Source: Gammaproteobacteria bacterium
GTDB lineage: Bacteria > Pseudomonadota > Gammaproteobacteria > Eutrophobiales > Eutrophobiaceae
Assembly (NCBI GenBank): GCA_965261165.1
Contig: OZ253445.1
Location: 973,987 to 1,037,986, forward strand
Length of the DNA stretch: 64,000 nucleotides
Direction: 5' to 3'
Position 1 is the stretch's first letter, and each line of letters opens with the position of its first letter. The position numbers were made by a program, and so were the translations under genes. The notes below the pieces were generated by a model. It was not told the origin of the DNA and did not search any database. It saw only the letters and a list, made by a program, of their open reading frames with translations. This document shows positions 2,075 to 14,677 of the stretch, one piece after another.

Positions 2075-2323
2075 TTATCTGAGCACAAGAAAGAGCTCGA
2101 CTTGCAACTTGTTTGCTTGTTTATCATGACCAACAATTTGATGATCATAATAAACTTGATTCTGACTAAAAGGGGTTCTACGATTCAGTTCAAAACCAAG
2201 CGCTTCCCTGAGGTTTGATTCAGCTGCTGATGGAAACGACAGCGTCTTCTTAAGCAGTATATTTTCAGGGGCAACTAAAACTAATTTTGCATGTTCTTCC
2301 TGGGTAAGCTGTGTCTGTTTCAT
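2075..2323 (-). pseudogene. GspL-like N-terminal (cytoplasmic domain) fragment
   Basis: 82 aa; VLVAPENILLKKTLSFPSAAESNLREALGFELNRRTPF parallels the GspL N-terminus (VLLLPAEQVLLLSVTLPKM..LAQALPYLLEEQL); remainder of the gene missing. Confidence 0.35.
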
Positions 2324-3055: not shown

Positions 3056-3436
3056 CTAATAAAAAAGATGCTCTGCGATATAGGCAAAGAAAAAACCTAC
3101 ACACAATATTCCTACTGAAATCCAATATAGCCAACAGTTCCATTGATGTGCCTTGGTACATAAGGCAGCTAACCCTGGATCAGTGGGACAGACACGCCCT
3201 GGTCGATAAAGTAACCAACCTCCTAAAAAAAATAATAAACATGATCCAGTAAATACCCATTTTTTGTGTAAGCTCAGAGTGATCAGAAATGGTAGATTAG
3301 ATGCCATAGCAGCAACTACAGCGCCCATGCCCAGACTTACAAGCATGATAGGTAAAGCACAACACAATAAGGTGCCGACAGAAGTAAATAAAATAAGCCA
3401 GCCCCATTTTTTTTGTTCGAGTTCTTGTTTTCGCAT
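3056..3436 (-). CDS. merT: MerT-like thiophilic-metal inner-membrane transporter
   Basis: 126 aa, 3 TM; vicinal CC in TM1 (GTLLCCALP), second Cys pair in loop (YRPGRVCPTDPGLAALC), C-terminal FY as in MerT. Confidence 0.65.
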   Translation of the reverse strand: MRKQELEQKKWGWLILFTSVGTLLCCALPIMLVSLGMGAVVAAMASNLPFLITLSLHKKWVFTGSCLLFFLGGWLLYRPGRVCPTDPGLAALCTKAHQWNCWLYWISVGILCVGFFFAYIAEHLFY

Positions 3437-3462
3437 GATTGATCTCTTAAAAAAAGTAACAC

Positions 3463-4341
3463 CTAAAAAGTTATGCCTATGGCAATTGAAAATTCAGAGC
3501 CACGAGAGTTGCTAATACCACTCTTTTTTTCATACACAGAATGTTTGTATTCAGTACGAAACATAAAGTTATCTTTGTAGAGAACCAATACAGGCCCCAT
3601 CTGTATCCGCTGCCCGCCTGAAGCTGTAGTTAAAGTAGCACTATTTGGATCATCATTATAACGAGCTGTTATATCCCACATTACAAAGACACCGGAATTT
3701 GTTTCATTACTATGAAAGGGGTGATAACCTAAATTGATGTCCAACCCGAGTTCATCTCCTTCATTCATTCCATGCTCGCCTTCTGTATTGAGCCAGTAAA
3801 TGAGATCGATCAACGTGTAATATTTAGGGCTTTCGCTACTGTAAGAAAAGCTTAATCCCAAATCCACACTACCATCACTAATGGGGAAATCTCCGGATGA
3901 ACTACCTGTAGGGACACGAACTGAAGGAGTAAAACTAAAATTTTCCGTGAATGCTCTTTTGTTGCGGTAGTATTTCAAGGGTAAGCCCAAGATCAGATCG
4001 CCTGGGCCAGCATTTGATTGCCGTACTCCAACGCTAGCAATTTTCTTTGTTCGTCTTTGCTCGACATAGGGTAATTTGAATGTTGCACGAATAGAACGAT
4101 CAAAAGTGTAAATACCTTCCAGCCATAGTGTCTCTACATAGCGTTTTAATCCAAGAGGATTAGATATCTCGGAATCTCCATCCATTAAATCATTTGATCC
4201 ATAATTCTGATAACGAACCTGATAACCAAATCCTTCACTCCAGCGAGGCGCCATATCCATGACCGGTTGATGTGCTGATACTGAAAATGAACATATCCAG
4301 ATTGACAATAAGAAAAGTGATTTTTTTATTTTAAGCACCAT
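3463..4341 (-). CDS. Outer-membrane beta-barrel protein (signal peptide, C-terminal Phe)
   Basis: 292 aa; cleavable signal peptide MVLKIKKSLFLLSIWICSFSVSA; alternating amphipathic strands; ends ...IAIGITF; 11-nt overlap with the upstream gene (translational coupling). Confidence 0.55.
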   Translation of the reverse strand: MVLKIKKSLFLLSIWICSFSVSAHQPVMDMAPRWSEGFGYQVRYQNYGSNDLMDGDSEISNPLGLKRYVETLWLEGIYTFDRSIRATFKLPYVEQRRTKKIASVGVRQSNAGPGDLILGLPLKYYRNKRAFTENFSFTPSVRVPTGSSSGDFPISDGSVDLGLSFSYSSESPKYYTLIDLIYWLNTEGEHGMNEGDELGLDINLGYHPFHSNETNSGVFVMWDITARYNDDPNSATLTTASGGQRIQMGPVLVLYKDNFMFRTEYKHSVYEKKSGISNSRGSEFSIAIGITF

Positions 4342-4789
4342 CTGCCTTATGCAGCGTCACCTTCCCATCAGCATCACTCACATAAGCCTCGACTGGCTCA
4401 TAGCCACCTTTAAGAATGGATTTAAAGACTTGCTCTAGATCTAAGAGGTCATTAGGTTTGATAGCAATGGTAACTTTTTGATCTTCAATTTCGACTTTCA
4501 CACCTTTCGTGTATTTTGATTTGTCGATAAATGGAAGTTTCGATAAATTACGCGTAACCCCTTGTGAACAGAAAGAGCAGACTATTCCATGCACAATAAT
4601 GACAGTTTCGCTCGGTAGTACAGATACATCAGCAGCGTCAACAGGCTTATCAAATCTTGGTTTAGATTTATGATCATGCCCTTCGAACCCATTGTGTTCA
4701 GCATAAACGGGAATTGATCCCACTGAGATAAACAGCACGAATGCTGAAAGAATTTTTCTTTTAAACATAACAACCTCATTTTTAAACAT
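4331..4789 (-). CDS. Periplasmic heavy-metal-associated (HMA) domain protein, MerP/CopZ-like, with His-rich N-terminus
   Basis: Signal peptide, EHNGFEGHDHKSK His-rich stretch, HMA motif HGIVCSFCSQG (GxxCxxC); 21-bp tandem duplication at the 5' end creates two in-frame Met codons. Confidence 0.6.
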   Translation of the reverse strand: MFKNEVVMFKRKILSAFVLFISVGSIPVYAEHNGFEGHDHKSKPRFDKPVDAADVSVLPSETVIIVHGIVCSFCSQGVTRNLSKLPFIDKSKYTKGVKVEIEDQKVTIAIKPNDLLDLEQVFKSILKGGYEPVEAYVSDADGKVTLHKADGA

Positions 4790-4868
4790 AACAACCTTAT
4801 AATAAACAAACTAATTCTTTAAATACGCTGATGCATAACTCCTGCATCACTCGTATCTCACTTCAGAT

Positions 4869-5222
4869 TTAAAGTATTATTTTTGGAGGTCGTATCGGTG
4901 GTGAGGAACTATTGGGAACTGTATGTTCGTTCTGAAGAAATTGGACTGATTGTTGAATCATTTGCACGATTATTAACGACGAATTGGAAATAAATACTAT
5001 TGAGCTACTACATATATTCATATCCTGACAGCAATTATTTGATGAGCTATCTGAAGACTTTTTTTGATCGGTATGACAATTATTACTTATCGTGTCTAAG
5101 GGCGTCTGCTGTGTATCAGTCTTATCAGACATGTCACAGCAACGTAGTACACTGCCTGCAGTTACATTTAGCGCAAAACTACAGAGTACAACAAGGTAGA
5201 TTATTCCAGATAGCTTATGCAT
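4869..5222 (-). CDS. Small secreted Cys-rich protein (candidate metal-binding, first gene of the metal operon)
   Basis: 117 aa; signal peptide MHKLSGIIYLVVLCSFALNVTAG; CC...C.H...CC...C pattern; low complexity so real translation is uncertain. Confidence 0.3.
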   Translation of the reverse strand: MHKLSGIIYLVVLCSFALNVTAGSVLRCCDMSDKTDTQQTPLDTISNNCHTDQKKSSDSSSNNCCQDMNICSSSIVFISNSSLIIVQMIQQSVQFLQNEHTVPNSSSPPIRPPKIIL

Positions 5223-5346
5223 GCTTTCAAGTTTAGTCCGATTACAGTAAAAAAAGATACACTAACGTGTTAGTAATTGGATTTATAGCAAAGTTCAATG
5301 GACATTGGGAACTGCAAGTTATAGCAGACTTACTTTGTTTTTTTCT

Positions 5347-5800
5347 TCACATACAAATCCGTGATACTACCGGCCTGTATCTCTGCTGAGAAATTAAGTG
5401 TTTCAGAAAAGGTGGGGATGAGGATGAATCGTTAGACTTATATCTTCCCAATCTGCGCCCATTTCTAATGCTAATACGGCTTCGGCGATTAGTCCCCCCC
5501 CCCCCCCGCATTTGGACCAACAATACCTGCGTCAAGTATTCGCTGATTGTCTGGATTCCATAATATTATTGTCAACCCTTCATCACGACCAATACTCAAG
5601 GCACGGCCACTGGCGGCCCAGGGGGAAACAGATTTTTCATATTTAATATGAGCTTTTCTTAGCATCGGTTTCTGCCAATTCCATCCATGCGAGCTCAGGA
5701 TCAGGGTACGCAGCTGAGGGAATAGTTAAGGCATCAAAAGATAAACCTACCCCAGTTTGACTCACCCTTTCTAAAAGGGACGGTTGTCCTAGAGGAGAGT
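5347..5800 (-). pseudogene. lpd: Dihydrolipoamide-dehydrogenase-like (pyridine nucleotide-disulfide oxidoreductase) C-terminal pseudogene with at least three homopolymer frameshifts
   Basis: Across three frames it reads ...FDALTIPSAAYPDPELAWMELAETDAKK / KAHIKYEKSVSPWAASGRALSIG..ILDAGIVGPNAG / LIAEAVLALEMGADWEDISLTIHPHP / TFSETLNFSAEIQAGSITDL. This is collinear with the Lpd C-terminus (FPWAASGRA...IVGxNGGEL..LAIEMG.DAEDIALTIHAHPTL...GSITDL). Frameshifts sit at the A4, C15 and G4 runs; the N-terminus is replaced by an IS3 fragment. Confidence 0.6.
5488..5502 (+). repeat. Poly-C tract, 15 nt
   Basis: agtccccccccccccccccgcatt; lies inside the lpd-like pseudogene at a frameshift point. Confidence 0.8.
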
Positions 5801-5821: not shown

Positions 5822-5975
5822 AAAGAGATTTAAGTGCGGAATTTAAACAAGAAGCGGTGAGATTACTGGAGCAAGGCGATAAAGAAGTCTCGCAGTTAGC
5901 CAGAGAACCGGGTGTTGCTGATGATGTTTTGTGCGCTGCCATTGAAGGTGGTGTCTATGGCCTTGACACGTCGTA
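5822..5975 (+). mobile_element. IS3-family transposase OrfA N-terminal fragment (remnant)
   Basis: Translation RDLSAEFKQEAVRLLEQGDKEVSQLAREPGVADDVL matches the IS3 OrfA HTH start (FSAEFKxEAV...); no start codon, stops after 51 aa. Confidence 0.55.
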
Positions 5976-6123
5976 AGCCATCTCGGCTGTAGTCTACTAC
6001 TCTGCCACTTGGTAAGGTCATCTGGGTAATATGGTCGCCATCGTCATAGAGATAACCCATCTTGTAGCGGGTGCCTTGGCTTTCGGTAAAGCTACCGTTG
6101 CTTATGTTGCTATTTAAAACCAA
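5976..6123 (-). pseudogene. Rhs YD-repeat stub (duplicated leader of the Rhs module, truncated by the IS3 fragment)
   Basis: LVLNSNISNGSFTESQGTRYKMGYLYDDGDHITQMTLPSGRVVDYSRDG; 5' region 6060-6200 is about 95% identical to 9262-9402. Confidence 0.6.
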
Positions 6124-6347
6124 AGAATACTTTCCTAGTTATGTTTCCTGGCCATGCTCTAAACTCCTTTTCAATTAAATAATTCTGTCACCTTTTTCAC
6201 AGTAATCAGATTAAGGGGCTTGTCACAAACTAATAATTTATTTCAACATCATTAAAAAAAGACGCGGCCCGTTTAATTCAGGGCTAGGGTAATTCTGTTC
6301 GTTATTTATACCGGTTTAAATATCTAATTTGGTACATTTGCCTTTAT

Positions 6348-6686
6348 CTATCCGCCAGTAAATATGGTTAAGGAGACGCCTCCACAAACAACCCAATCAA
6401 TAAAAATAAAAAAAAGAATATATTTACGATAAATTAAAAATTTATCATTAACCTTAAAACATAAGGCATATAAGACAACACATAATAATACTATTGGAAT
6501 CAATGAAAACAGTGATTCACGCACAAGAATAAATGGAGATAATCCAAATAAAATTAATGCAGATATAGTAGTAAAGAATGTTGAAAAAGCTAATTCTTTA
6601 AATAAAAAAAACAATAAGAAGATTAGATATACACCAATTCCGGCATATAAAATATCTTTAAGAAAGCTTTTAATTCTTACATCCAT
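6348..6686 (-). CDS. Putative Rhs immunity protein, small polytopic membrane protein
   Basis: 112 aa, 3-4 TM helices, immediately downstream of the Rhs C-terminal toxin ORF on the same strand. Confidence 0.45.
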   Translation of the reverse strand: MDVRIKSFLKDILYAGIGVYLIFLLFFLFKELAFSTFFTTISALILFGLSPFILVRESLFSLIPIVLLCVVLYALCFKVNDKFLIYRKYILFFIFIDWVVCGGVSLTIFTGG

Positions 6687-6704
6687 AACAGAGTAATCAA
6701 GGAG

Positions 6705-7367
6705 CTACTTCTGATCATTAAAATAGTTATATGATTCAATAGCTGCTGGAATACCTTCAAATGCTGGACCACCTGTATCCCAGAATGTATGACCAAGAAC
6801 GTCTAACATATCATCCAAATCATATTCACTAACTGGTCCATCTGGCATGGGATATTCATCAGGGGTGCCTTTACAACCTGCATATTTATGATTTTCATCT
6901 ACAAGCCCTCCATCATCATCATAAAAGCATTCTGCAATTGGACCTTCATCACATTTATCATCCCTTACCTCAAGGAATCCCCTAAAACCACAATGGAATA
7001 CGCGAGGATCACCAACATAAGGTTTCCAATCAGAATTATGTATTGGCGGTAAAGATGGACACGATGCAGTTAATCCATTTATATCAACTCCAATAATTGG
7101 ATTTTGTTCTACATACCCATAGGTATTCATCCCACCTCTCAACCCTATCGGATCACTGGTAATATACCTGCCTAACTCAGGATCATAATATCTAAAGTGG
7201 TTGTAATGCAGATTAGTCTCCGCATCATAGTATTGTCCAGGAAAGCGAAGGTTGACACTGACACTGCCTGATGCTGGGGTATTCCCAAACGCCTCACCTT
7301 CCCAGCGCCAGATGACCTTACGTGCCGCATCGACAGGCAAGCCGCTCAAAGTAAAGAAACCATTCAC
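6705..7367 (-). CDS. Orphan Rhs C-terminal module: core tail (RVxWRxE..DPxGL motif) + about 130-aa toxin domain of unknown type
   Basis: KVIWRWEGEAFGN...RYYDPELGRYITSDPIGLRGGMNTYGYVEQNP marks the end of the Rhs core; the following domain (TASCPS...FHCGFRGFLEVRDDKCDEGPIAEC...GHTFWD...) has no motif I recognise; GTG start, no full-length rhs upstream. Confidence 0.65.
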   Translation of the reverse strand: MNGFFTLSGLPVDAARKVIWRWEGEAFGNTPASGSVSVNLRFPGQYYDAETNLHYNHFRYYDPELGRYITSDPIGLRGGMNTYGYVEQNPIIGVDINGLTASCPSLPPIHNSDWKPYVGDPRVFHCGFRGFLEVRDDKCDEGPIAECFYDDDGGLVDENHKYAGCKGTPDEYPMPDGPVSEYDLDDMLDVLGHTFWDTGGPAFEGIPAAIESYNYFNDQK

Positions 7368-7654
7368 GTCTGTGGTGGTGGTGACCCCACTATTTAAAAA
7401 GCTAATGCAATTAGGGTATTGCCTATACTTACATGAAACGATAAGACAGATTCATACTCGGCTAAGAATACTATTATCAATAGACTTGACCAGTTTATTC
7501 TACTCTTGGTGTCTTCGCGGAACTGACAGTACTCAATTACTCAGGCACTGCTCCGCTGTACTACCGGGGTGAATGCGCAATTCCCCGGACGGGACCTTAA
7601 TCCGCTAGATAGCTTGCTAGTAACGGCGTACTACCTGACCCCGTTGTTTTGACC

Positions 7655-8320
7655 TCAATGTGATAGTAAGAGATAAATTCTAAACCAATTTAATTGACAT
7701 TGATCATTTAATTGACATTGATCTAAACTAAATTCAAACCCAGACCTCACATCATAAACTCTATGATCATCTAGCATTTTTTTGTCATCATATCTGTAAG
7801 CGTAAAAAGAAGAGTTCTCAAACGAGGGTTTACCAAAAAAATATTTAATGTTAGAAACTTCTAAATCTAGCGATAATTCATTGACTTTCATCGTCTTGCG
7901 ATCAATTAAATTAGACTTTGCACATCTCTTTGGATCAGTAAAGTCAGCTTTCCCAATCCATATAGCGGTGATGGTACTCCACCCACCTAAAGGGCCAGAC
8001 TGAAATATTACACTGGTATCATCTTCTTCTGATCTATAGCAAATCAGTTTTGGAGAATAGTTTTTCCTATTTGGTCTATAAAACATCGACTCACCAAAAA
8101 TAGCAATCACTTCATCAAATGTTGATGTGCCTATTATTATATTTGCTATTCTTAAATAGCTCTTATCAATAGTTTTATTATCGTATCTTGAATCCCATCC
8201 TAGTTCACCTAGTTCAGGTAAAGCAAATGGAACATCTGCAACACTTGCGCATGAAATTAAAAAACACATAATGAAACTTAATGTTTTCCTTATATTCTTA
8301 CGTATGAAATTAATTTCCAT
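7655..8320 (-). CDS. Putative Rhs immunity lipoprotein (periplasmic)
   Basis: 221 aa; signal peptide with lipobox LISC; directly downstream of the toxin ORF 8323..9324; 18-bp tandem duplication at the 3' end gives LDQCQLNDQCQLN. Confidence 0.5.
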   Translation of the reverse strand: MEINFIRKNIRKTLSFIMCFLISCASVADVPFALPELGELGWDSRYDNKTIDKSYLRIANIIIGTSTFDEVIAIFGESMFYRPNRKNYSPKLICYRSEEDDTSVIFQSGPLGGWSTITAIWIGKADFTDPKRCAKSNLIDRKTMKVNELSLDLEVSNIKYFFGKPSFENSSFYAYRYDDKKMLDDHRVYDVRSGFEFSLDQCQLNDQCQLNWFRIYLLLSH

Positions 8321-8322
8321 AG

Positions 8323-9324
8323 CTACTGAACCGTCAAGGTACCACCGCCAGCAGCGTCAATTGCATTCCTTGTATTAAGCGAACATATTATGCATCCTTC
8401 AGAAGCCGATTGATTATTCTTTCCATTATCTCCATGCATTAAAAATGAATTTGGATCACGTGTTGATGGGAATTGATTATTACTTGGTGTAGGCATCAAC
8501 GGTAATGACTGCAAACCCGTTTTAGGATTATCAACACCAGTTCCAATATCATAATCTCCACGCGGGATAGGCCCTACATTAGGAACATTTTGTTGTAAAG
8601 GATCGTTTGTTGCTCCTGGTGCACCAGAGTAACACTGCTCATTTACATCCTGATTGCCTGTACTATCGTTGGTACAGATTAACTGACCACTAGCTTGATC
8701 GTAAGAACAGCTAACGGTTAATCCATTTATATCAACTCCAATAATTGGATTTTGATTCACATACCCATAAGTATTCATCCCGCCAATAATACCAATCGGA
8801 TCACTGGTAATATACCTGCCTAACTCAGGATCATAATATCTAAAGTGGTTGTAATGCAGATTAGTCTCCGCATCATAGTATTGTCCAGGAAAGCGAAGGT
8901 TGACACTGACACTGCCTGATGCTGGGGTATTCCCAAACGCCTCACCTTCCCAGCGCCAGATGACTTTACGTGTTGCATCGGTGGCGAGTCGGTTGGTCAG
9001 CAAATGGTCGGTGTGGAGGTAGATGATGCCTTCTGAGGGCATCCCTGCCTGTACAGGCATGCTGGCATCGATCTGTGCCACTGGATGCAGGCCTTGTTGC
9101 CAGATGTAATCTTTGATCAAGGCACCGGTCTCGGTGGTCTCGGTGATGAGATAACCCCGTTGGTCATAGTGATAGATGGTAATACTGTCTATGCTGATGC
9201 CATCACCTTGATAGACAGTCTTTCTGGTTCTCTGTCCGCTATCGTTATAGAGATAACTCATCTTGCAGCGGGTGCCTTGGCTTTCGGTAAAGCTACCGTT
9301 GCTTATGTTGCTATTTAAAACCAA
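8323..9324 (-). CDS. Orphan Rhs C-terminal module: YD-repeat core tail + toxin domain with YkuD/L,D-transpeptidase-like motif
   Basis: YD repeats, then DPIGIIGGMNTYGYVNQNP, then C-terminal domain containing FLMHGDNGKNNQSASEGCIIC, which resembles the L,D-transpeptidase catalytic HG...S.GC(I/V) signature; TTG start; no N-terminal Rhs portion. Confidence 0.65.
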   Translation of the reverse strand: MVLNSNISNGSFTESQGTRCKMSYLYNDSGQRTRKTVYQGDGISIDSITIYHYDQRGYLITETTETGALIKDYIWQQGLHPVAQIDASMPVQAGMPSEGIIYLHTDHLLTNRLATDATRKVIWRWEGEAFGNTPASGSVSVNLRFPGQYYDAETNLHYNHFRYYDPELGRYITSDPIGIIGGMNTYGYVNQNPIIGVDINGLTVSCSYDQASGQLICTNDSTGNQDVNEQCYSGAPGATNDPLQQNVPNVGPIPRGDYDIGTGVDNPKTGLQSLPLMPTPSNNQFPSTRDPNSFLMHGDNGKNNQSASEGCIICSLNTRNAIDAAGGGTLTVQ

Positions 9325-12014: not shown

Positions 12015-12118
12015 TCATCGACCCTATTTATTCAGGTCTATTTCTTTGGTCATAGGATGGCAAGTCTTGGGTCAAGAGGTTATAATTTTTTTTCAGGATA
12101 GCGGGCATTATAAGAGTA

Positions 12119-12712
12119 ATGGTGAATAGAAGCGCAACAATTAAGCGAAAAACCAATGAGACTCAAATTGAAGTTAGCATTGATCTCGATGGAACAGGTG
12201 AGGCAAATCTTGAGTTAGGCGTGCCTTTTCTTGAGCACATGCTGGATCAGGTCGCTAGACATGGCATGTTTGATTTAAGCATCAAGGCAAAAGGCGATTT
12301 AGAGATTGATGCACATCACACTGTAGAAGATGTAGGCATTACTTTAGGTCAGGCCTTTACAAAAGCATTGGCTGACAAAAAAGGTATCCGTAGATATGGC
12401 CATGCCTATGTGCCTTTGGATGAAGCCTTATCGCGTGTCGTTCTGGATTGTTCTGGTAGACCCGGCCTAGAATATTCTGCTGAATATCCGCGCGCTCGGG
12501 TCGGGGACTTTGATCTCGACCTGCTTTTCGAATTTTTTCAGGGCTTTGTCAATCAAGGCATGGTGACTTTACATATTGATAAGCTCAAGGGACGCAATGC
12601 ACACCACATTGCCGAAACCATATTCAAGGCCTTTGGCCGTGCATTACGCATGGCCGTAGAACCTGATCCAAGAATGCAAGGTATATTACCTTCTACCAAA
12701 GGTACTTTATAA
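12119..12712 (+). CDS. hisB: Imidazoleglycerol-phosphate dehydratase
   Basis: 197 aa, IGPD motifs ([30 protein letters not shown]). Confidence 0.9.
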
Positions 12713-12743
12713 ACCGAATGCTATGACCCAAACGCCATAACAA

Positions 12744-13394
12744 ATGAGTAAAGTCGCTATCCTTGATTACGGAACCAGTAATCTGCGTTCTGTTGCCAAA
12801 GCCCTTGAGTTTGTTGCGGGGTCTCAACATGACATTCTCGTCACCGATCAGCATCAGGATATCCTCGCGGTTGATCGTATTGTTTTCCCGGGGCAGGGAG
12901 CGGTGGGTCAATGTATGAAAAGTCTTAAGGAATCTGGTCTTGATGAAGTAATTAAAGAGTGCATTAACAACAAACCCTTTCTGGGTATTTGTCTGGGCCT
13001 GCAATCATTGATGCAGGAAAGCGATGAGGATGGTAGAGTCGCTGGTCTAGGCATCATCCCCGGCAAAGTCATCCGTTTCCCAGATAATATCAAAGATGAA
13101 CATGGTGATATTTGTAAAATCCCGCACATGGGCTGGAACCGTGTCGTCCAACAAAAACCACATCCCTTATGGAAAAATATTGAAGATGGTGCTCGCTTCT
13201 ATTTTGTCCATAGTTACTATGCGCAAACAGAGAACGATGAAGATATTGCAGCTAAAACAAACTACGCCACTGAGTTTATTTCAGCAGCCGCCAGAGATAA
13301 TGTCTTCGCGACACAATTCCACCCCGAGAAAAGTCAGTGCGCAGGATTAACCTTGCTTAAAAATTTTTTGTCTTGGGACGGTAAAGATAACTAA
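12744..13394 (+). CDS. hisH: Imidazole glycerol phosphate synthase, glutamine amidotransferase subunit
   Basis: 216 aa class I GATase (GICLGLQ, FHPEKS). Confidence 0.9.
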   Translation: MSKVAILDYGTSNLRSVAKALEFVAGSQHDILVTDQHQDILAVDRIVFPGQGAVGQCMKSLKESGLDEVIKECINNKPFLGICLGLQSLMQESDEDGRVAGLGIIPGKVIRFPDNIKDEHGDICKIPHMGWNRVVQQKPHPLWKNIEDGARFYFVHSYYAQTENDEDIAAKTNYATEFISAAARDNVFATQFHPEKSQCAGLTLLKNFLSWDGKDN

Positions 13395-13399
13395 AATCG

Positions 13400-14677
13400 T
13401 CACCGGCTAATGGCATGGTGCCCAATGTCCTTTCGATAAAACATTCCATCCCAGTTGATCTTTGCCACTGCCTGATAAGCTAACTGCTGTGCCTGCAACA
13501 CTGTTTCACCAAGTGCTGTCACACACAAAACACGTCCACCTGCTGTTATCACATCATTATCTTGTTTTGATGCTCCGGCATAAAAGACTTTCGTTGTCTC
13601 TGGAAAGTCATTATTCAGTCCTGAAATTATATCGCCTTTGCTAACGCTAGCCGGATAGCCCGCCGATGCCAACACAACTCCTAGGGCAGCTCGTTCATCC
13701 CAGTTTGCTGTCACTTCATTCAATCTTCCATTCAATGCTGATTTGCACAGATCAATCAGATCGCTTTTCAAACGCATCATAATGGGTTGCGTTTCCGGAT
13801 CACCAAAACGGCAATTAAATTCCAGTACCTTGGGTGTGCCATCTGCAATAATCATAACGCCTGCATAGAGAAACCCGACGTATTCACGACCTTCTTCGGC
13901 CATGCCTCTGATCGTAGGTTCGATCACTTCACGCATAATACGATCATGCATTTCATCTGTGACCACGGGCACTGGAGAATATGCGCCCATGCCTCCTGTG
14001 TTGAGTCCTTGATCGCCTTCATCTCTTGCCTTGTGATCTTGAGAACTCGCTAATGGCAAAATATTTTTACCATCGGACATAACGATAAAACTGGCTTCTT
14101 CACCCTGCATGAACTCTTCGATAACAACACGATGCCCGGCATCACCAAACTTGTTTCCAGTCAGCATATCCTTAATAGCAACAATGGCTTCATCCTCTGT
14201 CATTGCAATAATGACGCCTTTGCCCGCAGCTAGGCCATCCGCCTTGACCACAATTGGCGCACCTTTTTCTTTCACGTATGCTTTTGCGGCACCGATTTCG
14301 GTGAATACCCGATATTCCGCCGTGGGGATATTGTGTTTTTGTAAAAAGTCTTTACTGAAGGATTTCGAACCTTCAAGAATTGCTGCTTTTTTTGAGGGAC
14401 CAAAACAGGCCAGACCAGCTTGTTGGAATTCATCGACTATACCGTCAACTAGTGGAGTTTCCGGACCAATGATGGTGAGGTCTATTTTTTCATTTTCGGC
14501 ATAGGCTTTCAGTGCTGAAATATCTTCAGCACCAATATTGATATTACTCACTTTATCTTCACTAGAAGTTCCAAGATTACCCGGCGCAACAAATACCTGC
14601 TTCACCCGATCTGACTGCGCTGCCTTCCATGCCAAAGCATGTTCCCGGCCACCACCACCAACAATTAATACTTTCAT
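13400..14677 (-). CDS. purD: Phosphoribosylamine--glycine ligase
   Basis: 425 aa, ATP-grasp PurD. Confidence 0.9.
   Translation of the reverse strand: MKVLIVGGGGREHALAWKAAQSDRVKQVFVAPGNLGTSSEDKVSNINIGAEDISALKAYAENEKIDLTIIGPETPLVDGIVDEFQQAGLACFGPSKKAAILEGSKSFSKDFLQKHNIPTAEYRVFTEIGAAKAYVKEKGAPIVVKADGLAAGKGVIIAMTEDEAIVAIKDMLTGNKFGDAGHRVVIEEFMQGEEASFIVMSDGKNILPLASSQDHKARDEGDQGLNTGGMGAYSPVPVVTDEMHDRIMREVIEPTIRGMAEEGREYVGFLYAGVMIIADGTPKVLEFNCRFGDPETQPIMMRLKSDLIDLCKSALNGRLNEVTANWDERAALGVVLASAGYPASVSKGDIISGLNNDFPETTKVFYAGASKQDNDVITAGGRVLCVTALGETVLQAQQLAYQAVAKINWDGMFYRKDIGHHAISR

Follow-up and report, generated by a model that had tools for sequence, protein, structure and literature searches.

The window analysed here, a stretch of 64,000 nucleotides (nt) from the gammaproteobacterial assembly GCA_965261165.1 (contig OZ253445.1, positions 973,987 to 1,037,986), carries close to its start a cluster of four genes on the minus strand (3056-5222) that may form a self-contained operon for the handling of a thiophilic metal. 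From 5' to 3', gene 1 (4869-5222) encodes a cysteine-rich exported protein of 117 amino acids (aa), gene 2 (4331-4789) a periplasmic HMA protein of 152 aa with a CSFC site, gene 3 (3463-4341) an outer-membrane β-barrel of 292 aa, and gene 4 (3056-3436) a MerT-like inner-membrane protein of 126 aa. Gene 1 is defined by its open reading frame (ORF) call, genes 2 and 3 by their ORF calls together with matches to PF00403 and PF13557, respectively, and gene 4 by its ORF call together with a sub-threshold match to PF02411. The ORF list thus holds all four genes in the order and at the coordinates given for them in an earlier reading of the same DNA (hereafter the original prediction), and the overlap of 11 nt that it described between the HMA and outer-membrane protein genes is present at 4331-4341, while the latter is separated from the MerT-like gene by a gap of 26 nt. 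The order Cys-rich/HMA/outer-membrane/MerT-like was found again in about 20 loci, and the arrangement is therefore not due to chance. Comparison with three orthologous loci (L008, L001 and L002, numbered as in the locus survey below) indicates purifying selection on all four genes, with ratios of nonsynonymous to synonymous substitution rates (dN/dS) of 0.09-0.33 (0.10-0.12 for the MerT-like gene, 0.09-0.14 for the outer-membrane protein gene, 0.12-0.19 for the HMA gene and 0.23-0.33 for the Cys-rich gene), from which we conclude that the four genes are live.

Across the whole 64-kb window, no gene for MerA, MerR or a DsbD-like protein was detected by tblastn, and a Pfam scan of ten large ORFs of the window found none of these three and no P-type ATPase either. 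The lack of mercuric reductase, MerR and efflux ATPase on which the original prediction had insisted is therefore borne out within these bounds. Away from the cluster, the scanned ORFs were identified by Pfam as housekeeping or ordinary chromosomal genes, among them those for LigA, SMC, LepA, GlnRS, PurH and pyruvate kinase. Promoter calling gave no sigma-70 site in the DNA upstream of 5222. The palindrome ACTAACACGTTAGT, considered as the metal-responsive operator that the original prediction had raised for this region, was dropped, as it is already imperfect in L008 and missing from more remote relatives.

The three genes that follow gene 1 form a widespread and conserved module that is not peculiar to the source genome. 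A scan of one genome per species collected MerT-like relatives from about 370 genomes, and the carriers are mostly Proteobacteria from marine sediments, hydrothermal vents and symbioses, for the most part uncultured. Cultured carriers of related trios are Sinimarinibacterium flocculans DSM 104150 (L077), Porticoccus sp. W117 and possibly Kangiella sp. HD9-110m-PIT-SAG07, the name of which points to a single-cell genome, and clusters of the window type are present in the complete genomes OZ000552.1 (L029), OZ245331.1 (L024) and CBDDAG010000001.1 (L014). The proteins of the window, and variants of them, were located in 80 fetched loci, 53 of which were non-redundant, had enough flanking sequence and were assessed further. 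Beside the MerT-like gene, an outer-membrane protein of the PF13557 type is encoded in 48 of the 53 and an HMA protein in 50, a MerR-family gene lies within 3 kb in 26, and a true MerA is found within 10 kb in eight. Several gene orders occur (with T for the MerT-like gene): 1) the window type, in which HMA, outer-membrane protein and T genes follow either a Cys-rich or a MerR-like gene, 2) a second type with the order T, HMA, outer-membrane protein, MerR, and 3) a third type with a divergent MerR gene and the order outer-membrane protein, HMA, T, followed by a DsbD-like gene, a second regulator or MerA. Beyond the four genes, no conserved partners were found around window-type clusters, other recurring "ORFs" being antisense shadows.

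The product of gene 2 matches the HMA family (PF00403) at 25.9 bits, against a cut-off of 24.8, and holds its metal site in the sequence GIVCSFCSQG. By inspection, it starts with a signal peptide (MFKRKILSAFVLFISVGSIPVYA|EH), after which the mature protein begins with EHNGFEGHDH; while the CSFC site is thus as first described, the "His-rich tail" ascribed to this protein is not a tail, the histidine stretch being located at the mature N-terminus. There was no match at E ≤ 1 to the MerP equivalog model TIGR02052, and the top NCBIfam match was to CopZ, at 23 bits. The HMA proteins of relatives in true mer operons do match TIGR02052, below its cut-off (56 bits).

Gene 3 encodes a member of the Phenol_MetA_deg family (PF13557, COG4313; 46.6 bits, cut-off 22). 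An AlphaFold2 model computed with 36 homologues, with a predicted local distance difference test (pLDDT) score of 90.7 and a predicted TM-score (pTM) of 0.83, is a 12-stranded barrel, for which Foldseek returned the channel Pput2725 (4rl8; TM-scores of 0.67/0.73, E = 6e-9), FapF (5o67) also being superposable. Searches of the PDB by sequence, both with this protein and with the MerT-like protein, gave nothing significant. The mature N-terminal segment reads (H/D/G)QPVMDMAPRW and is invariant from Q25 to W34 in the outer-membrane proteins of window-type loci; elsewhere the N-termini differ, with HDPVFGIGPHV in true mer operons and APITFNTALP in a third subfamily. The first ∼14 residues of Pput2725 enter the lumen of the barrel from the periplasmic side (PMC4493636), and by analogy the N-terminal segment of the window protein would also lie in the lumen, where its Met-Asp-Met sequence could act as a plug of the kind expected of a soft-metal filter. 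As in Pput2725, TcpY, SphA and FapF, a short segment precedes the first strand of a 12-stranded barrel, and the match to the COG4313 family is shared with the known COG4313 channels. In contrast to them, whose known members are tied to hydrophobic substrates or, in the case of FapF, to amyloid secretion, the subfamily of the window is locked to metal genes, and the family-wide Glu2 and Gly6 of Pput2725 are not apparent in QPVMDMAPRW by inspection without an alignment to Pput2725. The possibility of an N-terminal "histidine brace" on this protein was rejected, because the first mature residue varies between H, D and G and only QPVMDMAPRW is invariant.

Gene 4 encodes a protein with three predicted transmembrane (TM) segments (topology by inspection), with the pair C25-C26 in TM1 and C83 and C93 in the loop between TM2 and TM3. 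All four cysteines are invariant in 30 homologues, and in an hhalign comparison with Tn501 MerT (E = 6e-4) both pairs are aligned, so that the description of this protein as a MerT-like permease with a CC in TM1 and a Cys pair in the loop is well founded. Its 443 homologues in a clustered protein collection are nearly all unnamed, and a few carry a precomputed match to PF02411; some members of its own 90% identity cluster are annotated as "mercuric ion transport protein". The identification of genes 2 to 4 as a transport-type trio of an HMA protein, an outer-membrane barrel and a MerT-like inner-membrane protein in a single operon is therefore upheld.

Members of the same MerT-like family are found in true mer operons. 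Directly 3' of the MerT-like gene in L076 lies a mercuric reductase gene whose product clears both curated models (NF010311, 826 bits with a cut-off of 600; TIGR02053, 582 bits with a cut-off of 454), and a family member also adjoins MerA in L057. The divergent regulators of L027 and L059 pass TIGR02051 (157.7 and 150.9 bits, respectively, with a cut-off of 150.85) and have a cysteine layout of the MerR type (GDGHC ... C-X8-C-P). The MerT-like proteins of true mer operons are 57-62% identical to that of the window, and the same operons also hold an HMA protein and an outer-membrane protein of the PF13557 type. The family therefore includes Hg(II) transporters, encoded in operons with an outer-membrane channel, and mercury cannot be dismissed for the window on the grounds that MerA and MerR are missing, as the original prediction had argued.

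The proteins encoded by gene 1 and its relatives are unnamed and outside Pfam. An exhaustive profile search brought together 262 representatives, all full-length and of ∼100-130 aa, with a hydrophobic N-terminus in common. In the window protein, a signal peptide of about residues 1-22 (by inspection: MHK, then LSGIIYLVVLCSFAL, then NVTA|GS) is followed by CC28-29, C49-H50, C64-C65-x2-M-x2-C71 and, four residues before the stop, R111-P112-P113; the pattern CC..C.H..CC..C, first pointed out in the original prediction, is thus present. Among 62 diverse members, C49, C65, P112 and P113 alone are strictly invariant and C28, H50, C64 and C71 are conserved in at least 90%, while the other positions are poorly conserved. 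In 132 of 152 members, four to five residues separate the two prolines from the C-terminus (with RPPI, TPPP and RPPK as the commonest forms), and their distance from the cysteines is constrained as well: the spacing from CC to xPP has sharp modes at 40 and at 44-45 residues, with xPP 37-39 residues beyond the last Cys of the motif, and in the window C65 and R111 are separated by 45 residues. The AlphaFold2 model of the window protein has a pLDDT of 50.5 and is confident only in the N-terminal helix 4-25. With few exceptions, window-type loci have gene 1 conserved 5' of the HMA gene, and more remote members of its family were seen directly upstream of the HMA, outer-membrane protein and MerT-like genes in every context examined.

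This anatomy recalls two small exported proteins of the DUF2946 family, CruR of Bordetella pertussis and CutF of Rhodobacter capsulatus, whose genes are the first of copper operons and whose hallmarks are a Cys motif and, at a spacing of ∼45 residues, an arrest motif, rich in proline, located a few residues short of the C-terminus. In CutF, copper on the nascent chain prolongs the stall and melts a stem-loop that masks the next Shine-Dalgarno (SD) sequence, so that the genes downstream are turned on by copper, whereas the arrest of CruR is relieved by copper, Rho can then terminate transcription, and they are turned off. Gene 1 likewise heads a metal operon, and its product shares with CutF and CruR the size (∼100-145 aa), the export signal, the Cys motif, the C-terminal Pro motif and the spacing of about 45 residues between them; the SD sequence of the downstream gene is predicted to be masked by mRNA structure, which may correspond to the stem-loop of CutF. 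It differs from them in that its family has CCxxMxxC (or CCxxC) with an additional CC and CH, where CutF and CruR have CxxC or CxxxC, in that the predicted anti-SD sequence lies within the Pro codons themselves, in that the genes downstream encode HMA, COG4313 and MerT-like proteins, and in that the DUF2946 model does not detect the window protein. DUF2946 is the only recurrent Pfam match in the gene 1 family as a whole, where it is returned weakly for five of 62 members (best E = 0.0024). By analogy, gene 1 probably encodes an exported metal-sensing arrest peptide of the CutF/CruR type and not a structural envelope protein; it is the invariant PP, the fixed spacing, the poorly conserved middle and the absence of a predicted fold that speak against reading it as a stable binding protein, and a dN/dS above that of the other three genes was counted in favour of a leader as well. 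The view of the cluster as supplying one component for each envelope compartment, put forward in the original prediction, is accordingly hard to maintain, all the more as a MerR-like regulator takes the slot of gene 1 in L006, L018 and L070.

Another class of small Sec-exported Cys-rich products from metal-stress loci are the bufferins BufA1 and BufA2, which are metallophores of the ribosomally synthesised and post-translationally modified peptide (RiPP) class made by MNIO enzymes (PMC11626156). Gene 1 shares with them its size class, its export signal, its cysteine content and its place in a metal locus, but was rejected as a bufferin or RiPP precursor, as it has no NCBIfam BufA match and the window holds no MNIO/DUF692 and DUF2063 partners. 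An invariant C-terminal PP at a fixed spacing is, to our knowledge, not a feature of bufferins. A BufA2 domain does occur in the relative L076, beside the true MerA: there, at 12091-13622, a protein of 237 aa combines a MerC-like membrane N-terminus with a BufA2 domain (NF050166, 69.6 bits, cut-off 60) and is followed by a DUF692/MNIO-like ORF. This fusion ties bufferins, which were described for copper, to a mercury operon. When the BufA2 domain and the DUF692-like (putative MNIO) ORF of L076 were used as tblastn queries, nothing was found in the window.

The predicted folding of the messenger RNA between gene 1 and the HMA gene would fit a leader as well. The two genes are 79-100 nt apart in the window and 51-130 nt apart in 14 loci, and the intergenic RNA of the window folds more stably than shuffled controls (z = -2.7). 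In its predicted minimum free energy (MFE) structure, an anti-SD sequence inside the R-P-P codons of gene 1 (ACGACCUC/CCUCCA; 4884-4893, minus strand) pairs with GAGGUUGU at 4770-4777. This long-range CCUC:GAGG helix, connecting the Pro-Pro codons to the SD sequence of the HMA gene, is kept in the consensus fold in five of five orthologues, and the predicted probability that the SD sequence is paired with the ORF tail is 0.99 in the window, versus 0.27 for control tails. The SD sequence of the HMA gene is predicted to be paired in all of the 14 loci (P = 0.69-1.0), its partner being found among the final 48 nt of the leader ORF in nine and no more than ∼12 nt past the stop codon in five, and a ribosome pausing at the PP codons would reach either position. 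The mean SD pairing is 0.65 with the true ORF tail, compared to 0.30 with other 48-nt pieces of the same gene (Wilcoxon p = 0.008). Between the two partners, the MFE and centroid structures both contain a conserved hairpin (4829-4859, minus strand), with an inner stem UGAUGCA/UGCAUCA at 4829-4849 and an outer stem starting at 4859, which the consensus fold retains in five orthologues with a few compensatory changes. The loop of this hairpin (4829-4849) displays GGAG and then an ATG, which opens a mini-ORF of five codons (MHQRI, then stop).

The start of the HMA gene itself is duplicated in the window. Two tandem units of SD and ATG, AAGG..ATG at 4787-4799 and GAGG..ATG at 4766-4778 (together 4766-4799, minus strand), are apparent from the sequence and from comparison with orthologues, and an 18-nt unit, AGGTTGTTATGTTTAAAA, containing the SD sequence and the start codon of the HMA gene, is doubled in tandem at 4759-4797 (minus strand), the period being 21 nt. 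Only one copy is present in the orthologues L008 and L001, whose HMA protein begins with MFKRKIL. The duplication provides two in-frame HMA starts, the second SD sequence being the one that pairs with the Pro codons in the MFE fold. Because the whole unit of SD and ATG is tandemly duplicated, translation probably starts at the second ATG (4768), which would yield a protein of 145 aa.

What takes the place of gene 1 in some relatives is informative with regard to its role. The MerR-like regulators that occupy the slot of the Cys-rich gene in L006, L018 and L070, in L006 with an overlap of 4 nt with the HMA gene, have a Cys at the position of MerR-C82/ZntR-C79 and a C-X9-C loop, a layout that, by the cysteine rule that separates CueR from MerR and ZntR, would mark them as sensors of divalent soft metals. 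The exchange of one for the other would be explained if gene 1 is a regulatory leader. Most other regulators linked to the trio are of an unusual C-X6-C type lacking the third Cys. Scores were of no help in typing the metal from adjacent MerR-type regulators, and this approach was dropped: the ZntR, MerR and CueR models of NCBIfam gave near-equal values below their cut-offs, and regulators of the fused type seen in L006, L018 and L070 were scored about equally, again below the cut-offs, by the ZntR and MerR models.

Taken together, we give about even odds (a probability of roughly 0.5) to the reading of the cluster at 3056-5222 as an intact, self-contained operon composed of a regulatory leader and a three-protein relay for thiophilic metals. 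From the identities of the genes, the fold, the conserved residues, the gene order and the spacing, and from the predicted RNA pairing, we infer ribosome stalling of the following kind. As the nascent chain of gene 1 threads the Sec translocon and its CC..CH..CCxxMxxC motif meets the periplasm, the R-P-P sequence, 45 residues further on, would occupy the peptidyl-transferase centre of the ribosome. A ribosome paused on CCU-CCA would cover the anti-SD sequence that otherwise pairs with the GAGG of gene 2, and the pause would thereby free genes 2-4, coupled in translation or lying close together, to be translated. The pause would be modulated by metal on the nascent chain of gene 1. The polarity of stalling would most naturally be metal-on, as in CutF, and we favour this because a MerR-type regulator fills the same slot in relatives and accompanies the trio elsewhere. 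MerR-family regulators are generally activators when metal-bound and are switched on by excess metal. A polarity of the CruR type would instead mean an acquisition system.

As for the direction of transport, genes 2-4 would do what the transport genes of a mer operon do, but starting one step earlier, at the outer membrane. The metal, free or in a complex, would enter through the COG4313 channel with its Met-Asp-Met plug segment and be captured at the CSFC site of the periplasmic HMA protein, and the MerT-like protein would hand it on from the Cys pair of TM1 to that of the cytoplasmic loop. No gene of the cluster encodes an acceptor in the cytoplasm. The most economical reading of the trio appears, by analogy, to be an inward route for a thiophilic metal, with mer-like ligand exchange. 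With MerT and MerP of mer operons it shares a periplasmic CxxC protein of the HMA fold and a three-TM protein with Cys pairs in TM1 and in the cytoplasmic loop; it differs from them in that its proteins score under the curated MerT and MerP cut-offs and that neither MerA nor MerR is encoded near window-type clusters. In the canonical mer scheme, the crossing of the outer membrane is drawn as diffusion only and no outer-membrane component is listed (PMC8261052, Fig. 1), whereas the window operon includes a dedicated outer-membrane channel and, by analogy with CutF and CruR, is apparently regulated by a leader peptide and not by MerR.

With respect to the substrate, Hg(II) or another soft divalent ion is the candidate we place first, at somewhat short of an even chance, since the transporter family is the one used in true mer operons and the fused regulators of relatives are of the divalent type. 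Cu(I)/Ag(I) is a serious second candidate, in which we have less confidence, and anything else is less likely still. A more specific version of our proposal is that there are exported arrest peptides, out of reach of the DUF2946 model, that sense a soft metal (possibly Hg(II)), carry an anti-SD sequence in their Pro-Pro codons and control a three-step import that begins with a COG4313 barrel carrying a Met-Asp-Met plug; we advance it tentatively, and would sooner expect it to fail in one of its parts than to hold as a whole.

Several observations weigh against these readings. The match of gene 4 to PF02411, although it covers the full length, reaches only 18.1 bits (E = 0.0028) with a cut-off of 32.9, and that to NF010314 16.6 bits with a cut-off of 150, so that, of the profile matches anticipated for the trio by the original prediction, those of the HMA protein and of the outer-membrane protein were obtained and that of MerT fell short. 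When the MerT-like proteins are placed in a neighbour-joining tree, the window type forms a clade of its own and every MerA-linked locus falls outside it; neither MerA nor MerR was found within 10 kb of 19 window-type loci, which extends to relatives what had been noted for the window. It is also difficult to see why a cell should bring in a toxic metal when no sink for it is encoded. The Met and His motifs of the leader (CCxxMxxC and PCH), of the outer-membrane plug (MDM) and of the HMA N-terminus (HDH) look more like Cu(I)/Ag(I) than like Hg(II) motifs. COG4313 channels have so far been linked to hydrophobic substrates and not to ions (PMC4493636), and the plug segment of gene 3 is modelled with low confidence (pLDDT 52-75). 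The window protein of gene 1 has no Pfam match, DUF2946 (PF11162) being absent at E ≤ 1, and its putative link to this family consists in a shared architecture and in weak matches of relatives. Finally, an AT-rich genome favours CCU and CCA as Pro codons, and CCUCC fits any SD sequence of the GGAGG type, so that the predicted pairing may in part be a by-product; the control tails also pair often, at a mean of 0.30 and up to 1.0 in some loci.

The alternative that survives best is one that we nevertheless consider unlikely. According to it, all four products are structural, one in each compartment, gene 1 encodes a stable Cys-rich metal binder or buffer, and the system takes up Cu(I) (or Zn) when it is scarce. 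Such a system would be in keeping with the absence of MerA near any of the window-type loci and with the Cu(I)-type motifs MDM, CCxxMxxC, PCH and HDH; Cys-motif CutF-like proteins, moreover, mostly head copper genes, and CruR, a DUF2946 protein, heads a copper-import operon that is shut off by copper, so that even a leader would fit acquisition if it were CruR-like. A stable binder, on the other hand, would hardly be expected to have the invariant PP and the fixed Cys-to-PP spacing of gene 1, or to be weakly conserved in its middle and without a predicted fold. Relatives swap gene 1 for a MerR-family regulator with three Cys, a MerR-type regulator accompanies the trio within 3 kb in 26 of the 53 loci, and true mer operons make use of the very same trio.

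This last observation could be taken further, with the cluster as the transport half of an ordinary mercury resistance system whose merA and merR lie elsewhere on the 2.1-Mb chromosome, and with the Cys-rich protein as an accessory periplasmic Hg(II) binder. Several relatives do have MerA kilobases away from the outer-membrane protein, HMA and MerT-like genes, sometimes on the opposite strand, and both the "mercuric ion transport protein" annotations in the 90% identity cluster of gene 4 and the 57-62% identity to MerT-like proteins of true mer operons are as this explanation would have it. We regard it as improbable all the same, given that the window-type loci are a separate clade with MerA within 10 kb in none of 19, that their plug (QPVMDMAPRW) and HMA protein are unlike the mer versions (HDPVFGIGPHV and a MerP-like protein of 97-104 aa), and that the cluster travels from genome to genome as one block that includes no mer genes. 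That the trio is no metal importer at all, and deals instead with a hydrophobic thiol-reactive compound (for example an organomercurial or an organic sulfur species), with an envelope thiol/disulfide relay or with outward detoxification, is very improbable, for although the characterised or proposed substrates of COG4313 channels are hydrophobic, a DsbD-type membrane reductase is often encoded 3' of the MerT-like gene in relatives and sulfur oxidisers and bacteria of vents and sediments are numerous among the carriers, the CxxC of the HMA protein, the MerT-type Cys pairs, the metal-type MerR regulators and the linkage to MerA all indicate metal ions, and the cluster encodes no energy-coupling export component.

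The leader and relay that we propose lie in a neighbourhood full of gene wreckage, comprising a truncated secretin, a GspM fragment, Rhs/Tlde1 fragments and a frameshifted lpd remnant. Directly upstream of the cluster, at 5330-5742 (minus strand), lies the 3' remnant of a gene for dihydrolipoamide dehydrogenase (lpd), whose 5' part is lost and which is followed by the Rhs fragments. It is frameshifted at a homopolymer of 14 nt (5494-5507), while an intact lpd is collinear in L008, and it is not MerA, as it is without the C-terminal Cys pair; with its SITDL...KKK ending, it resembles Lpd of Escherichia coli. Orphan Rhs C-terminal cassettes occupy 5896-9324 on the minus strand (5896-6123, with an RHS repeat; 6705-7367; and 8323-9324, with RHS and a Tlde1 toxin). 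Two of them share the end of their core, ...YDPELGRYITSDPIG, and then diverge, and each is trailed by a small ORF without family assignment (6348-6686 and 7655-8320), probably an immunity gene. On the other side of the cluster, fragments of a type II secretion system are found at 20-1140 and 2075-2323 (minus strand), namely a C-terminal piece of a secretin of 181 aa, a GspM-like ORF of 144 aa and a piece of 82 aa. The debris of secretion, lpd and Rhs genes suggests a decaying region around a four-gene cluster that is still intact.

The original prediction had taken the position next to insertion sequence (IS) and Rhs remnants as a mark of horizontal acquisition. The Rhs remnants are indeed present, whereas the IS part does not hold: five transposase queries found no IS or transposase remnant, and the upstream fragment at 5330-5742 is the lpd remnant and not a mobile element. 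In the nearest species (L008), collinearity takes in the cluster together with the 3' end of lpd, at 84.5% nucleotide identity over 2.7 kb, and the cluster's GC content (0.39) and GC content at third codon positions (0.31-0.33) are like those of housekeeping genes. A recent horizontal transfer is thus unsupported by composition and by synteny with L008. More remote carriers differ in their flanking genes and are diverse in their labelled taxa, which suggests, as far as sequence comparison can tell, that the module moved in the more distant past, and an older mobility is likely.

The relatives also show a number of variations on the module. Directly after the MerT-like gene, a protein of 434 aa with a C-terminal DsbD_TM domain is encoded in L021, L022, L032, L040, L046, L056, L057, L083 and L084; it may keep the periplasmic metal-binding cysteines reduced in mer-linked loci. 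In the endosymbionts of Lamellibrachia and Escarpia (L062, L065 and L069), a conserved protein of 239 aa without a Pfam match is found instead of the PF13557 outer-membrane protein, encoded ∼400-1500 nt downstream of the MerT-like gene. Close relatives have, 3' of the cluster, a membrane ORF of 62 aa and a gene for a Rap1a-like (PF18602) periplasmic protein that are missing from the window (L001 7606-8241, L002 6569-6946, L008 8825-9460 and L010 3489-4108). L090 carries a decayed copy of the leader, HMA, outer-membrane protein and MerT-like genes (4001-5678), in which the frames of the last two are fused and internally deleted; the module can therefore be lost by erosion.

Both halves of the locus belong to known kinds, one being a proposed mer-like relay and the other a proposed CutF/CruR-like sensor. 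Their combination, the outer-membrane component, a leader family beyond DUF2946 and a predicted anti-SD sequence within the putative arrest codons appear to be undescribed in the searchable literature, in which we found no description of the trio of MerT-like, HMA and COG4313 proteins. The available text of the publications on CutF and CruR (DUF2946) does not mention MerT, HMA or Phenol_MetA_deg neighbours, and the supplement on CutF holds no table of neighbours.

If our reading is correct, mer-type systems would gain with this barrel their first dedicated channel for entry across the outer membrane, and a metal-linked function would be new to a channel family thought to carry hydrophobic compounds; a COG4313 subfamily with an invariant Met-Asp-Met plug and a fixed association with metal genes would broaden the view of these proteins as hydrophobic conduits. 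That an outer-membrane channel is locked to MerT/MerP-like genes, including in operons with true MerR and MerA, makes the outer-membrane step experimentally approachable. Sensing of metals by nascent peptides, as in CutF and CruR, is a recent discovery, to which the locus would add a compact and distinct family dedicated to one transport module, and the exchange of the leader for a MerR-like regulator in relatives represents a natural experiment. As the carriers are mostly uncultured bacteria of marine sediments, vents and symbioses, the module may be relevant to the cycling of mercury or copper in these habitats.

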